This document shows, piece after piece, positions 2,940-8,103 of a stretch of DNA of 8,282 nt (within the stretch, counting starts at the first letter, position 1; each line of letters starts with the position of its first letter). Source of the DNA: a virus. Its lineage: Duplodnaviria; Heunggongvirae; Uroviricota; Caudoviricetes. Made by a program: the position numbers and the translations under genes. The DNA lies in IMG/VR virus record IMGVR_UViG_3300028481_000082, positions 1 through 8,282 of that record. The stretch is one strand, 5' to 3'. The notes under the pieces are model-generated. The model saw only the letters and a list, made by a program, of their open reading frames with translations, made no database searches and had not been told where the DNA came from.

Positions 2940-2958
2940 AAATGAACGCCAAGGAAGG

Positions 2959-3288
2959 CTATTTAATTCTCTTTTCAATGGCTGCAATTATTGCTTTTCC
3001 TGATGTTTCAGGAGATTTTGTAGCCATATAAGACGAAAAAATCATGTCGGTCATTCTTTCATAACTTACTATTTCCCACTTAGCCAATGCATGGGACAGT
3101 TTGTAGTTGTCATCAGTTAGTGCCCTTATGGAATTTTTTAAGTGTTTATTCTCTTCAGTTAATCGCGCAATTTTTGTATCAATTTCATGTGAGCGATCTA
3201 ATTCCTTAACCTGTTTCTTGAGGGCAGCTAACCCTGCATATAGTACGCAACAGGATATCCCAAGAGCGAGTACTACTATTTCTAACAC
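2959..3288 (-). CDS. Hypothetical small membrane-anchored coiled-coil protein (109 aa); accessory/moron gene, possible superinfection-exclusion or defence-associated function
   Basis: Minus-strand ORF with GTG start at 3288 preceded by a strong AAGGAGG Shine-Dalgarno (plus-strand CCTCCTT at 3294-3300, 5-nt spacer). Stop TAG is at 2959-2961. N-terminal 22 aa are hydrophobic (LEIVVLALGISCCVLYAGLAAL), followed by a K/E-rich heptad-like segment (KQVKELDRSHEIDTKIARLTEENKHLKNSIRAL). It is AT-rich relative to the flanking structural genes and convergent with gp16. Function is inference only. Confidence 0.65.
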   Translation of the reverse strand: MLEIVVLALGISCCVLYAGLAALKKQVKELDRSHEIDTKIARLTEENKHLKNSIRALTDDNYKLSHALAKWEIVSYERMTDMIFSSYMATKSPETSGKAIIAAIEKRIK

Positions 3289-3662
3289 ACCAACCTCCTT
3301 AGTTTTTCGCAGGATACCAGATGATACTTTATTGGTGGAGTGGTGTGTGAAAACGTGTCAACGACAAACCATCCACAACTTGGACGAATGATTTAGCAAA
3401 AAGTGCTATTTTTGGTGTTTGGTGTCATAGAAAAGTGAATAGCTCACTTTTCAACATTGCATGAAACTTGCAGGAAATGTGACATTACCTTATAGGTAAC
3501 TTCGGCGAAAATGCAGTAAATGTGAAACGTAATGGTTTAAACATGTCGCTAAAGTGGTTGTAAGTTAGCCTCCGAAGGATTGCTGATAGCTTTGTTATAG
3601 TATTAAATGACATTTGACATAGTTGGATACTTAGCTGTGGCTATCAAGATGGAGGTGTGTTC
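3289..3662. promoter_or_regulatory. AT-rich divergent intergenic control region with several dyad symmetries (candidate operators and promoters for both the minus-strand 109-aa gene and the plus-strand Panacea-like operon)
   Basis: 374 bp non-coding and AT-rich. Perfect 9-bp inverted repeat GAAAAGTGA-n5-TCACTTTTC at 3430-3452. Palindrome AATGT-g-ACATT at 3476-3486. Inverted repeat TTACC-ttata-GGTAA at 3485-3499. Palindrome AAATG-a-CATTT at 3605-3615, overlapping a consensus TTGACA hexamer at 3614-3619. GGAGG Shine-Dalgarno at 3651-3655. Exact -10 elements and transcription start sites are not resolvable by eye. Confidence 0.45.
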
Positions 3663-4106
3663 ATGCTTACTTGTTTTGATGTCGCCGACTACTTCCTGTC
3701 GCGGTGTGACGAGGATAGCGGTGACACAATCTCTAATTTAAAATTACAAAAGCTTGTTTACTATGCTCAGGGTTTTTCATTGGCGTTGCTTGGCGAGCCT
3801 CTTTTTCAGAATAAGATGGAAGCTTGGATGCATGGCCCTGTTGTCCCTGAGCTTTATCGCCGTTATAAACAATATGGTAATGGCGCTATCCCTTCTCCAG
3901 AGTCTTTTGATGCTGAAAAATTCAGCGAAGAACAGTTAGAGCTATTAGAAGAAGTCTGGGATGTTTTTGGGCAATTTTCTGCCTGGAAACTGAGGAACAT
4001 GACACACGAAGAGTCACCATGGAGATCAAACTATATTGAGGGTGTTGGTGGTTCTGAAATTAGCTCTAAGGAGATGGCAGAGTACTTTGCAACTCGGATT
4101 AACTAA
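3663..4106 (+). CDS. Panacea-domain (DUF4065 / GepA / SocA-like) protein, 147 aa; putative antitoxin or defence-system component
   Basis: ATG at 3663 with GGAGG 7 nt upstream. The track start at 3657 is an in-frame GTG only 1 nt from the SD, so 3663 is preferred. The protein carries motifs I associate with the DUF4065/Panacea family: SNLKLQKLVYYAQGFSLALLGEPLF and EAWMHGPVVPELYRRYKQYG. The family call is from memory of its consensus, not a search. Confidence 0.6.
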   Translation: MLTCFDVADYFLSRCDEDSGDTISNLKLQKLVYYAQGFSLALLGEPLFQNKMEAWMHGPVVPELYRRYKQYGNGAIPSPESFDAEKFSEEQLELLEEVWDVFGQFSAWKLRNMTHEESPWRSNYIEGVGGSEISSKEMAEYFATRIN

Positions 4107-4110
4107 CGAG

Positions 4111-4530
4111 ATGGCAAGAAAATCTAAAAGGATTATCCCCCCTGCTGAATCTACAGGTAAGTTAAAGTTAGGGCCGCAGTCAGGGGGGAATTCAGATCAA
4201 AAGAAACCGAAATTTTCATTCTGTTACATCCAAAGCTCTCACTGCATAACGAAATGCCAAAAAGATGAGAAAGCTGGCTTAGCTGATAAATTATACAGAT
4301 TAAGTCAACTAACATGGGCAGAGATTAAGCAGCAAGGTAGGCATAAGCTTGGATTTGAGAAGATTGCAAGGGGTGCAATTAAAGCAGGTATCCCCAGTCA
4401 TATAACGGAAGACGTAGATCATTTCTTGGCTTTTAGATTTGATGATTTGAAAGCCATGGTTGGTTATCGTCTTGGATCGACATTTTTTGTTATATGGCTT
4501 GATAGAGAGTTCAACCTATACAAGCACTAA
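4111..4530 (+). CDS. Hypothetical basic 139-aa protein translationally coupled to the Panacea-like gene; candidate toxin or effector partner, family unknown
   Basis: ATG at 4111 lies 4 nt after the upstream stop (TAA 4104-4106) with no strong independent SD, which suggests coupling. The longer track ORF from 4036 starts inside the upstream gene in another frame and is not favoured. Basic N-terminus (MARKSKRIIPP), Cys/His cluster (FCYIQSSHCITKC), and a beta-rich C-terminus (GYRLGSTFFVIWLDREFNLYKH). Followed directly by a terminator. Confidence 0.6.
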   Translation: MARKSKRIIPPAESTGKLKLGPQSGGNSDQKKPKFSFCYIQSSHCITKCQKDEKAGLADKLYRLSQLTWAEIKQQGRHKLGFEKIARGAIKAGIPSHITEDVDHFLAFRFDDLKAMVGYRLGSTFFVIWLDREFNLYKH

Positions 4531-4531
4531 T

Positions 4532-4557
4532 AAAACCCACCGTCAGGTGGGTTTTTT
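4532..4557. terminator. Bidirectional rho-independent terminator between the accessory operon (+) and mnt (-)
   Basis: Stem AAAACCCACC (4532-4541), loop GTCA (4542-4545), stem GGTGGGTTTT (4546-4555), followed by TT on the plus strand. The reverse complement also gives a hairpin followed by a U-run. The mnt stop codon (TGA, plus-strand TCA at 4543-4545) sits in the loop. Confidence 0.75.
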
Positions 4558-4794
4558 GTACAAATCCTTCAGCGTATCAAACACCATCTTCTTAACAAGA
4601 TCTGACTGCTCATCAGCGAGTCGTTCTGCATCGTCACGATATCCAGTCACAGGCGATGGTTTTGATAGAGCATCTTGGACGATTTGTAACAACTCGGAGT
4701 TCATTGATCTCCCATTCGCCTCCGCCCTGAATTTTAATTTCTCCCTTACTTCCATAGGCATACGGAAGTTAAAGTGCGGATCATCTCTAGCCAT
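4543..4794 (-). CDS. mnt: Mnt repressor (ribbon-helix-helix, Arc/MetJ family), maintenance-of-lysogeny repressor of Pant, 83 aa
   Basis: The 83-aa product MARDDPHFNFRMPMEVREKLKFRAEANGRSMNSELLQIVQDALSKPSPVTGYRDDAERLADEQSDLVKK... matches my recollection of P22 Mnt almost residue for residue. ATG at 4792-4794 with GGAGTG SD on the minus strand. Located next to its palindromic operator and divergent from arc. Confidence 0.93.
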   Translation of the reverse strand: MARDDPHFNFRMPMEVREKLKFRAEANGRSMNSELLQIVQDALSKPSPVTGYRDDAERLADEQSDLVKKMVFDTLKDLYKKPT

Positions 4795-4816: not shown

Positions 4817-4845
4817 TTGACATGATAGAAGCACTCTACTATATT
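4817..4845 (+). promoter_or_regulatory. Pant promoter (rightward; drives arc-ant)
   Basis: -35 TTGACA at 4817-4822, 17-bp spacer, -10 TATATT at 4840-4845. The Arc operator lies in the spacer and the Mnt operator just downstream over the predicted start site, as in P22 immI. Confidence 0.8.
4822..4842. promoter_or_regulatory. Arc operator (Oarc), 21 bp
   Basis: ATGATAGAAGCACTCTACTAT at 4822-4842, identical to the P22 arc operator sequence as I remember it (TAGA/TCTA half-sites), positioned between -35 and -10 of Pant. Confidence 0.85.
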
Positions 4846-4850
4846 CTCAA
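4822..4850 (-). promoter_or_regulatory. Pmnt promoter (leftward; drives mnt), overlapping Pant
   Basis: On the minus strand: -35 TTGAGA (plus coordinates 4845-4850), 17-bp spacer, -10 TATCAT (plus coordinates 4822-4827). Divergent and overlapping with Pant, consistent with the known P22 arrangement. Confidence 0.65.
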
Positions 4851-4870
4851 TAGGTCCACGGTGGACCTAT
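4850..4870. promoter_or_regulatory. Mnt operator (Omnt), perfect 21-bp palindrome
   Basis: ATAGGTCCACGGTGGACCTAT at 4850-4870 is perfectly self-complementary around 4860 and contains the symmetric AGGTCCACGGTGGACCT core I recall as the P22 Mnt operator. It overlaps the predicted Pant start site. Confidence 0.85.
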
Positions 4871-4884
4871 ATTGTGAGGTGAAT

Positions 4885-5046
4885 ATGAAAGGAATGAGCA
4901 AGATGCCGCAGTTCAATTTGCGGTGGCCTAAAGAAGTATTGGATTTGGTACGCAAGGTGGCGGAAGAGAATGGTCGGTCTGTTAACTCTGAGATTTATCA
5001 GAGAGTAATGGAAAGCTTTAAGAAGGAAGGGCGCATTGGCGCGTAA
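4885..5046 (+). CDS. arc: Arc repressor (ribbon-helix-helix), 53 aa
   Basis: ATG at 4885 with GAGGTG SD. Product [53 protein letters not shown] matches P22 Arc as I remember it, including the 53-aa length. The longer track ORF from 4822 would run through the operators and is rejected. Confidence 0.93.
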
Positions 5047-5113
5047 AGTGGAAGCCCCAACTGCGGGAACAGTCAGGGCTTCGGTTGTCAGTAAATCCGT
5101 GGAGAAAAACCAA
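5045..5113 (-). ncRNA. sar: sar-like small antisense RNA (~68 nt) complementary to the ant ribosome-binding site and the arc-ant intercistronic region
   Basis: P22 is known to make a 68-69 nt antisense RNA (sar) from a promoter inside the 5' end of ant. Here the minus strand has a TATACT -10 (plus coordinates 5121-5126). A transcript starting near 5113 would cover the ant ATG (5115) and GGAG (5101-5104) and contain a stable hairpin (GAAGCCC...GGGCTTC, 5051-5082) followed by CACUUU. Coordinates are approximate and inferred. Confidence 0.5.
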
Positions 5114-5114
5114 C

Positions 5115-6017
5115 ATGAATAGTATAGCAATTTTAGAAGCAGTGAACACCTCTTACGTACCATTCAACGGTCAGCAAATTATCACCGCCATGGCTGCCGG
5201 AGTTGCATACGTTGCGATGAAGCCAATCGTTGAAAACCTTGGAATGAGTTGGGGTACTCAGCAACAAAAACTTATGAAACAACTAGATAAGTTCAACTGT
5301 ATTCATATGAATATGGTTGCCGCTGATGGGAAGCTTCGTAAGCTACTCTGCCTTCCTTTGAAGAAGTTAAATGGATGGCTGTTCAGCATCAACCCTGAGA
5401 AAGTTCGAGCTGACATCCGCGATAAACTGATTCAGTACCAGGAAGAATGCTTTACTGTACTGCATGACTACTGGACAAAGGGAAAGGCAGAAAATGCACG
5501 TAAGAAAACATCTGTTGATGACAGGACTCCGCTTCGTGATGCTGTAAATATGCTAGTCAGCAAAAAGCATCTAATGTACCCAGAAGCTTACGCAATGATT
5601 CATCAGCGTTTCAATGTGGAAAGTATTGAAGAGCTTGATGCATCTCAGATACCGCAAGCCGTAGAGTACATCCACAGGGTAGTGCTTGAAGGTGAGTTCA
5701 TCGGCAAACAAGAGAAGAAAACCAACGAGCTTTCTGCAAAAGAAGCAAGCAGCCTTGTATGGCTATGGGATTATGCCAACCGCTCACAGGCATTATTCCG
5801 CGAACTGTATCCGGCGCTGAAACAAATTCAATCGAACTATTCCGGCAGATGTCATGACTGCGGTTATGAGTTCTCCCGTATTATCGATATAGCGAGAGAC
5901 GTTTTAATCAATCACTCACGAGATGTTGATATCAATGAGCCAGACGGACCAACGAATCTTTCCGCATGGATGAGACTTAAGAATAAAGAATTACCTCCTT
6001 CAGTACATAACTACTGA
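5115..6017 (+). CDS. ant: Antirepressor Ant, 300 aa
   Basis: ATG at 5115 with GGAG 10 nt upstream gives exactly 300 aa, the P22 Ant length. N-terminus [47 protein letters not shown] matches my recollection of P22 Ant. Directly downstream of arc in the immI arrangement. The track start at 5085 has no RBS. Confidence 0.9.
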
Positions 6018-6117: not shown

Positions 6118-8103
6118 ATGACAGATTCAATAAATGCCAATGTTGTAGTAAGTATGCCATCGCAACTCTTCACTATGGCTCGTTCTTTTAAAGCAGTTGC
6201 CAATGGCAAAATTTATATCGGTAAAATTGACACTGACCCGGTAAATCCTGAAAACCAGATTCAGGTTTATGTAGAAAACGAAGATGGTTCTCATGTTCCT
6301 GTTTCGCAACCAATAATCATTAACGCTGCTGGTTACCCTGTATATAACGGACAGATTGCCAAATTCGTAACTGTGCAAGGCCATTCTATGGCTGTATATG
6401 ATGCATATGGCGTACAGCAATTTTACTATCCAAACGTATTGAAGTATGACCCTGATCAGTTAAGGCAGGAGCTTGAAGGAGATAAAGGTTTTTTAATCCC
6501 TGGTGGTCAGCAGGAAAGATTTTATGACCTACGCGCATTTGTTGAGCCAGGAGACCCAGCAGCTCCAGACTACACGCAGGCTTTCAAACGCGCCATCGCC
6601 TCTGGTAACGGACGAGTTTTTGTCAACGTTCCAGTGGAATTTACAGAAGATCTGACTATCCCGGCGAAGTTCCGCGTAGATATTGGTGAATGTGGTTATC
6701 TGTACACTAACTCAGCAAAAGTACGCATTGAAGGATTTATCAATACTATCGGGGGTAATGATCCGTATCGCGGTTACATCCATCCATTTGGCGTTGACTC
6801 GTCAACAGTGGCGGGTATTTACACGATGCCTGTAACACTCATGGTTCCGGAAGATTACCGGACCATTCAGGAAGCAATTGACGATATCCCAAATAATTAT
6901 TGGCAGAGAATTATTATCTCAATTGCACCAGGAACTTATGATGAAGACATAGTAATCAGAAGCAAGAGGGGGTGCACACCTCTATTCCCACCTAGCGCAT
7001 CGCAACAAGCAAACATTGTTATAGTAAGTAGAACTACCGACAGAACAACAGTTAATGTTAGGTCAGCCCAGGTATTTTCATGCGGAGGCACACCATACAG
7101 CCCAGAGTTGCACGCTTTAAACTTTACAAATAGAACACACAGTGATGAAAATGCTTCAGTTGAATTTTATGGATGCACATCTGGCGCTGTTAATGATTGT
7201 TCATTCAATGGGGTAGGAGTTGATAAGTGTATTGAGGCATATAATAGTACAATATCAGTTGAATCATGCGATTTCGGTAACGAAATTAATGATAAAGGGA
7301 TGGTTGTAAAGCATGGAGGAGTATTAAGCTCAAACTCAACAAGAATAGGACAGGCGCTAAAGCCAATGTCTGGCACACTAAAAAGTTGGGTTGCTGTTTC
7401 GATAGGCGGTATCATTATCGGTAATGATTTTGGTATGTGCATTGGTAAAGTTGCGCAAAGTAGGGTTGATGGAGTACAGGTAGGGCTTATAACTGAAACA
7501 GCTACAAAATCAATTAATGGAGTAACATCTTCATTTACGCTTGCGACAACAAGGCACCATACTCAATTTCAAGACTATGATAAATTTACCAATAAAGTAA
7601 CCGGCTCAGGTTCAGGGTTGGAATATTATGCAGAAGGTGGATTAGTTGTAAGAGCGGGGACTGTTGGCGGTACGGCACTTGTAAGATATAAAAGAGAGCG
7701 ACGGCTTGTATTAAATTATGAAACATTTAACTATCTTGGTTTTGCTGTTGCTTATGGAATTACATCTGGAGTTAATTCACTAAATGGTTTTATAGTTTGT
7801 GGCTCCGTGGAATCAGGAAATTACTTTGGAATAAGGTATATAGGAAATGAAGCAAAAGGTATAATATGTAAGGATGGAGTGCAGTCAACGACTACATTAC
7901 TTAACAGCACAAAAACATATGGGACATGGACGTGCAAATATGTAGGAAAGGGTGACGGGCAGTTAATTATTATGCACAATGATACATATGCTGGTCATAT
8001 AAATGGAGTTAAGTTATCATCATATGATGGAACATATTTCGAGGCCTACATAACAGACGATAGAATACAGCTATTCGAAATGGATTTTATTGCAAGCGCT
8101 TAA
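6118..8103 (+). CDS. Tailspike protein (P22 gene 9 homologue), 661 aa; conserved head-binding N-terminal domain plus a divergent beta-helix receptor-binding domain
   Basis: ATG at 6118 with GGAG at 6105-6108. The N-terminal ~115 aa ([60 protein letters not shown]...[15 protein letters not shown]...NVLKYDPDQ) is clearly homologous to the P22 tailspike head-binding domain and, by memory, closer to the Sf6/HK620 type. The remainder does not resemble the P22 endorhamnosidase domain. GC drops from roughly 47-60% to roughly 30-38% from about 6950 onward. Confidence 0.93.

Follow-up and report, generated by a model that had tools for sequence, protein, structure and literature searches.

A leucine-zipper membrane protein in the sieA slot of P22-like prophages, a candidate blocker of phage entry

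Small prophage-expressed inner-membrane proteins that block DNA entry are exemplified by the HK97 gp15-type morons, which are encoded among virion genes; these belong to unrelated phage groups, and their sequences are unrelated to that of the protein studied here. Closer to the present case is SieA, which blocks DNA injection by P22-like phages, has been described as types A, B and C, and is escaped by mutations that map to the gp16 and gp20 C-termini (Leavitt et al. 2024, PMC10883804). The sieA gene lies between genes 16 and 9 and is directed against the late operon, within the gene 16-to-tailspike stretch known as the variable "ant moron" (Villafane et al. 2008, PMC2629481). SieA is the only occupant of this position that has been studied.

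The window, i.e. the whole stretch of 8,282 nucleotides that was analysed, comes from a P22-like (Lederbergvirus-type) prophage, of whose late region it forms the right end. Its plus strand carries the C-terminal part of the gene for the ejection protein gp20 (22-1101) and the gene for the ejection protein gp16 (1098-2939), which are followed on the minus strand by the target ORF (2959-3288), a non-morphogenetic gene between gene 16 and the tailspike gene, as is the cargo of the ant moron. Beyond it lie a Panacea/SocA-like antitoxin-domain gene (3657-4106, plus strand; PF13274, E=1.9e-24) and a co-oriented partner encoding 139 aa (4111-4530, plus strand; phrog_8366) with a weak PADLOC match to NsnC (E=5.9e-6), a pair that looks like a PanA-type toxin-antitoxin or defence module. 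The mnt gene (4543-4794, minus strand), an arc ORF (4822-5046, plus strand) and ant (5085-6017, plus strand) come next, and an Rfam scan of the window returned only a complete sar antisense RNA (5047-5114, minus strand; 91.5 bits), away from the target gene. The arc ORF, of 74 aa, exceeds Arc in length, and its Arc domain begins at residue 25. The tailspike gene (6118-8103, plus strand) encodes a P22 head-binding domain fused to a receptor-binding part of another kind, which has a weak pectinesterase-like match.

The target CDS (2959..3288, minus strand) encodes 109 aa, with its GTG start at 3286-3288 and its TAG stop at 2959-2961. The reading frame and start codon proposed in the original prediction were borne out, PGAP giving the same coordinates in E. 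coli GPEC859 (WP_000890120.1), and so were the strong RBS, AAGGAGG at 3294-3300 with 5 nt between GGAGG and GTG, and the convergence on gene 16, whose stop (2937-2939) is separated from the target by a 19-nt gap. The protein belongs to PHROG 8100: residues 2-109 align with positions 2-109 of the 109-position profile (E=1.4e-69). RefSeq WP_000890120.1, labelled hypothetical in E. coli and Salmonella, has the identical sequence. The sequence is thus already catalogued under both entries, as "hypothetical" everywhere, and a search of the literature available for the analysis, on the protein, its accessions or the function of hkcB, returned nothing.

The original prediction had also placed the gene at the position of P22 sieA but on the opposite strand. 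The position holds, since the gene lies between genes 16 and 9 and runs against the late operon; the strand does not, as sieA in BK000583 is also convergent on gene 16. The positional analogy is stronger than first thought: strand, RBS and start codon are all common to the two genes. One slot, flanked by gene 16 and the immI/tailspike region, accommodates either of them to the exclusion of the other; they share leader, RBS and GTG and have related 3' joints, and both products have an N-terminal membrane helix with an acidic N-tail before it and a K/R cluster behind. The target is, as had been proposed, not SieA. No homology was detectable between the two (hhalign probability 0.3%, E=0.18), the FxRYPxEAxxFNK motif of SieA types A-C is absent from the 109-aa sequence, and the same Kyte-Doolittle measure detects one hydrophobic segment in the target and four in P22 SieA. 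SieA has a polytopic body of three or four TM segments, whereas the target combines a single one with a leucine zipper and a small helical C-domain. Another occupant of the slot, HK620 HkcB (phrog_5962), resembles the target in its junction, its 109-aa length and its layout, a hydrophobic N-terminal stretch that leads into a long coiled-coil-like helix. However, its sequence is unrelated to that of the target (hhalign probability 1%), its ORF runs through the 3' joint, and the gene 16 end that accompanies it is of the HK620 type, while that of the target is of the P22 type.

The sieA slot and its occupants

The target, P22 sieA, HK620 hkcB and Emek orf129 encode unrelated proteins from one common GTG start, and alignment of their upstream regions revealed a common leader, GGTATCCTG-N3-AAAACTAAGGAGGTTGGT. 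The 33-nt leader of sieA differs from that of the target only at two of the three variable N positions, and HK620 matches the window over 40 nt (3280-3319). In the window this 5' junction of the slot comprises 34 nt of the minus strand (3286..3319), reads TGGTATCCTG-N3-AAAACTAAGGAGGTTGGT-GTG and includes the RBS and the start codon; the mosaic breakpoint coincides exactly with it. When IMG/VR was scanned with the last 21 nt of the junction, at least 119 P22-like contigs matched, and the ORFs that start at the junction GTG in these loci belong to at least 13 families with no detectable mutual similarity. Among the matches listed, the hkcB-type family is found at 22 loci, the orf129-type family at 17, the target family at 15, a 62-aa family at 13 and the SieA family at 12, and there are eight further families. 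In a logo of 89 distinct rows, positions -31 to -22, a stretch outside the search pattern, carry 1.6-1.9 bits, and conservation drops away at -32 and at +4.

At the other end of the target, directly after the stop codon, the 3' joint (2949..2958, minus strand) reads CCTTCCTTGG on the gene strand and matches CCNTCCNTGG. This element stands at offset 0 after the stop in six unrelated occupant families, including that of the target; in SieA it follows at +3, in one more slot family at +6, and in hkcB it lies inside the last codons. It is highly specific to the slot, 87 of its 95 occurrences in 2.5 Mb of loci being located at the 3' joint. The target has the complete signature of the sieA slot, that is, a TGGTATCCTG-N3-AAAACTAAGGAGGTTGGT-GTG start and then CCNTCCNTGG, and the common 5' junction and 3' joint therefore identify it as cargo of this slot, which is taken by one or another of at least 13 non-homologous, mutually exclusive ORFs. 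The slot itself is an ORF-exact cassette position within the ant moron, convergent on gene 16 and delimited by the fixed 5' junction and, in most families, by CCNTCCNTGG at the 3' end. We consider it the most useful new result of the analysis: two short conserved joints frame at least 13 interchangeable genes for small envelope proteins, and these fixed joints provide a simple sequence rule by which more candidates can be harvested from prophages, besides making cassette-swap experiments easier.

Of the 13 slot families among the matches listed, 10 have a clear Kyte-Doolittle TM segment and two more a shorter N-terminal hydrophobic stretch; one, a soluble protein of 140 aa, has no hydrophobic segment. 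SieA is the only one of the 13 with a known function. The occupants at IMG/VR loci L013-L131 include a 129-aa signal-peptide protein (phrog_2651), two-helix membrane proteins of 62 and 75 aa, a bitopic protein of 106 aa and a YobH-like protein of 68 aa, YobH being a host-type family.

The start codon of sieA has been considered uncertain, with a product of 162 or 164 aa (Leavitt et al. 2024, PMC10883804). The conservation of the junction and its GTG over 13 families, with the loss of conservation after +3, favours a start at the GTG (4829-4831 of the P22 locus, L005) and a 164-aa product. In flanks of the P22 (L005) and HK620 (L006) types, the space between the slot gene and hkcC is just the 30-bp junction, which there acts as a back-to-back pair of RBSs (window 3289-3319), CAGGATACC-ATG starting the divergent hkcC. 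In the window, a remnant ORF of nine codons (3321-3350, plus strand) is found beyond the junction.

The occupant of the slot is linked far more closely to the gene 16 3' end than to the upstream flank. Among the matches listed, hkcB is accompanied by the HK620-type gene 16 end in 21 of 21 cases, and the gene 16 end beside the target is of the P22 type at 12 loci and a close variant of this type at 2; SieA, orf129 and two further families also occur with the P22-type end. Over its last 150 aa, gp16 beside the target is 69-87% identical among the window, SE1, Klebsiella and L011, and this C-terminus is about 22% identical to that of HK620. Such a linkage would be expected if occupant and gp16 type were functionally matched, but their mere adjacency accounts for it equally well.

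On the upstream side the target is found with four different types of flank, which indicates that the junction is a recombination joint. The Panacea pair belongs to one of these flank types and is joined to 10 different slot occupants. The original prediction had offered the target either as the third component of an accessory island or as an independent exclusion factor. Lying 368 bp from the Panacea gene and divergently transcribed from it in the window, it might indeed be taken for a regulator or membrane partner of the PanA-type pair, but Panacea is upstream of 4 of 14 target loci versus 16 of 105 loci with other occupants, among the matches listed (Fisher p=0.25), and within 3 kb in only 2 of 40 loci of the target family. 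Moreover, the target gene is present and Panacea absent in SE1 and ST160, the reverse holds for Emek and phiv205-1, and the mosaic breakpoint falls exactly at the junction. No consistent co-occurrence was thus found in these sets, and the free reassortment of target and Panacea pair leads us to reject the third-component proposal as very improbable and to retain the target as an independent unit.

Selection, distribution and protein architecture

The target is a real gene under purifying selection. In comparison with the Klebsiella and L011 homologues, for which dS is saturated, dN/dS is 0.05-0.12 in codons 72-109, 0.13-0.25 in the zipper and 0.5-0.6 in the membrane helix and linker; in comparison with the closer SE1 copy (dS ~0.1), the values are 0.12 for the C-domain, 0.68 for the zipper and 1.3 for the helix and linker, from few substitutions. 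The C-terminal 38 residues are therefore the most constrained part of the protein and the membrane helix the least. The ORF is intact in 37 of 40 homologous IMG/VR loci. That it might be no gene at all, merely a chance antisense ORF, could be argued from the fact that it is unannotated in several phage records, including those of SE1 and ST160, but we give this idea practically no credit: it is contradicted by the substitution pattern, by a conserved heptad core in an ORF that stays intact down to 35% identity, and by the strong RBS common to the target and sieA. Between the window and SE1, codons 2-35 (3184-3285, minus strand) show 13 non-synonymous and 3 synonymous changes (dN/dS ~1.3) and the C-terminal domain 1 and 2, respectively; the N-terminus could be subject to relaxed or to diversifying change, the counts being too small to decide.

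The family is narrow. A word-indexed protein search rendered 14 clusters of the target family, and in an exhaustive HMM search of 1.84 billion representatives just 5 clusters passed E<1e-10 and no new domain architectures emerged; none of 185,579 species-representative genomes encodes the family. At least 1000 E. coli and Salmonella contigs carry the exact protein of the window, and the DNA of the target is present in 27 of 5426 complete E. coli genomes. All the contexts examined are P22-like prophages. The homologue is convergent on gene 16 in 40 of 40 IMG/VR loci, and likewise in Klebsiella quasipneumoniae, L011 and L012, i.e. down to about 35% identity; the remote L012 homologue has an Arc/Mnt-like gene immediately before it, in the same orientation. 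One 71-aa protein from a JGI metagenome (P0014) joins a gp20 fragment to the last 34 residues of the target family; the window encodes these two parts on opposite strands, which makes an assembly chimera the probable explanation.

The N-terminal hydrophobic helix that had been predicted is real by the measure used, a Kyte-Doolittle mean over 19 residues with the usual threshold of 1.6, the value for residues 4-22 (3223..3279, minus strand) being 2.43. The N-tail before this TM helix is MLE, without K or R and with a nearly invariant E3, and the helix is followed by KKQVK, within a KK..K..R pattern, of which K24 is nearly invariant; the flanks have 0 versus 4 K/R. According to the positive-inside rule, this charge count suggests an N-out/C-in topology, with the zipper and the C-domain in the cytoplasm.

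The heptad pattern also withstood scrutiny, as a five-heptad leucine zipper in residues 36-71 (3076..3183, minus strand), supported by the conservation of a and d positions. The d positions are I36, L43, L50, L57, L64 and W71 and the a positions I40, N47, I54, N61 and L68; among 11 diverse homologues (to about 35% identity), d positions are hydrophobic in 95% of cases, with a mean entropy of 0.55 bits versus 1.2-1.5 at b, c, e and f. The segment thus has the marks of a leucine zipper: at least four heptads, Leu at d, hydrophobic residues or Asn at a, and conservation in homologues. Asn at a positions in a Leu/Ile core is the pattern of parallel dimeric zippers such as GCN4, and by this analogy the conserved N47 and N61 suggest that the protein forms a parallel dimer through the zipper. 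A sequence search of the PDB had GCN4, Fos and Jun zippers as its best matches, none of them significant.

The remainder of the protein is the nearly invariant C-terminal domain, residues 72-109 (2962..3075, minus strand; EIVSYERMTDMIFSSYMATKSPETSGKAIIAAIEKRIK). Even the remote homologue P0017 retains SY..(D/E)M(I/L)F.S.MA..SP...GK.IIAAIE(K/R)R in its C-terminus. The AF2 model (mean pLDDT 84.7) is essentially one long helix, continuous over residues 2-90 and followed by a loop at KSPETSG and a helix at 97-108; pLDDT is 89-97 across the zipper stretch and only 57-69 for helix 97-108. A Foldseek search with this model against PDB and BFVD returned no matches.

A membrane anchor followed by a coiled coil is also the plan of FtsB/DivIC and of Rz-type i-spanins, but the flank charges of the target predict the opposite topology and the genomic context differs. 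The target scores 17.5 bits with DivIC/FtsB (PF04977; E=0.0037), below the Pfam cut-off of 28.9, and the matches to Pfam ZapB (E=0.02) and bZIP are likewise below threshold; the PHROG matches to Rz-like spanins are at E=0.015 and 0.064, and the target, between gene 16 and immI, has no embedded lipoprotein ORF. Both a spanin and an FtsB-like division protein were dropped as identities of the target. More generally, searches of Pfam, NCBIfam and PADLOC rendered sub-threshold coiled-coil matches only.

Candidate functions

The slot, the expression signals and the membrane location suggest a possible exclusion function, and we tentatively favour, at somewhat less than an even chance, a SieA-like role for the target in interference with DNA entry. 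The gene would be expressed from the prophage, like sieA; its product would insert in the inner membrane, with the three-residue N-tail outside and the remainder in the cytoplasm, and would dimerise in parallel via the zipper, and the C-terminal domain would interfere with the DNA entry of superinfecting P22-like phages that have a P22-type gp16 C-terminus. Such a protein would be a functional analogue, not a homologue, of SieA. This reading is consistent with a real gene whose slot is that of sieA and whose synteny is complete, with the bias of the slot towards envelope proteins, and with the constant presence of a P22-type gp16 C-terminus beside the target, as of the HK620-type beside hkcB, among the matches listed. 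On the other hand, no sequence or profile similarity was detected to SieA, to hkcB or to the defence and exclusion models of PADLOC, Pfam and NCBIfam, no consensus promoter was found, and one slot family has no hydrophobic segment at all. Adjacency by itself could account for the linkage to the gene 16 3' end, and the topology was derived solely by charge counting, so that a periplasmic zipper, as in FtsB and Rz, would change the mechanism. Guilt by position is also a weak argument, because only one of the 13 slot families among the matches listed has a known function.

The main rival is a prophage-expressed membrane moron that would act on the host, on envelope physiology, division or stress, and would exclude no phage. 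It can be considered possible, if clearly less probable than interference with DNA entry: the TM helix and zipper resemble FtsB, DivIC and ZapB, and the other slot occupants are without known function, one of them being YobH-like, but the matches are all of the sub-threshold sort typical of any coiled coil, the target family is found only in the sieA slot of P22-like prophages, and the one occupant of this slot whose function is known is an exclusion protein. Next to it comes a general defence protein, an abortive-infection or sensor type that would work at the membrane's cytoplasmic face and not be specific to P22 injection, which the predicted C-in topology would allow by placing the conserved domain in the cytoplasm, in a neighbourhood rich in defence-like cargo (the Panacea pair, with the weak NsnC match of its partner). 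We regard this as rather unlikely for a protein of only 109 aa that has no enzymatic or nucleotide-binding domain and whose gene is strictly co-located with gene 16; its PADLOC match to LmuB (E=0.0014, 15.6 bits) is to a coiled-coil part of LmuB and reflects composition. It could also be the case that the target serves the lytic cycle of the phage, as a spanin-like, holin-modulating or ejection-protein helper, given the weak Rz-like matches and the adjoining ejection-protein genes. This is more unlikely still: the gene is not part of the lysis cassette and is transcribed against the late operon, no ORF for a partner lipoprotein accompanies it, the soluble part of its product contains no Cys, 12 unrelated ORFs (among the matches listed) can take its place, and most P22-like phages lack it.

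Interference with DNA entry can be extended to the slot as a whole, as a locus at which injection blockers are hot-swapped. The at least 13 unrelated small envelope proteins would each exclude phages by engaging the ejection-protein conduit, matched to the gp16 C-terminus, and the zipper protein would do so as a membrane-tethered dimer at the cytoplasmic face, a mode that to our knowledge has not been described for any exclusion protein. This extension is speculative, and we hold it to be possible but doubtful. The target, a conserved small membrane protein in the position of sieA, is a good candidate for a phage-entry blocker of a new kind. Should it exclude phages, it would add a non-homologous variant to a prophage function already known, and a second, unrelated and much simpler protein in the socket of sieA would provide an independent handle on the blocking of P22-type DNA delivery. 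Even if it excludes none, the slot documents ORF-exact exchange of modules at very short joints.

Signals around the target gene

A scan for consensus sigma-70 promoters near the target gene found none with a spacer of 16-18 nt, for which reason a weak candidate on the minus strand (3321..3351), with TTCACA at 3346-3351 and TATCAT at 3321-3326 separated by 19 nt, amounts to no more than a lead. Several types of upstream flank have TATCAT immediately ahead of the junction. An extended -10 promoter (TGGTATCCT) within the junction was considered and dropped, because on the other strand CAGGATACC-ATG constitutes the RBS and start codon of hkcC, which explains the conservation of these bases more simply.

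Within the target gene, a terminator-like hairpin (2996-3015, plus strand), followed by TTTTGT, is located on the strand of gene 16, antisense to the codons of the invariant SPETSG loop. It could be a functional terminator of the late operon or a by-product of the coding sequence, as the peptide P-E-T-S-G forces four of the five stem pairs. The Klebsiella homologue has one mismatch in the stem, and in the L011 homologue the stem is kept through a double synonymous change (CCTGA/TCAGG to CCGGA/TCCGG).
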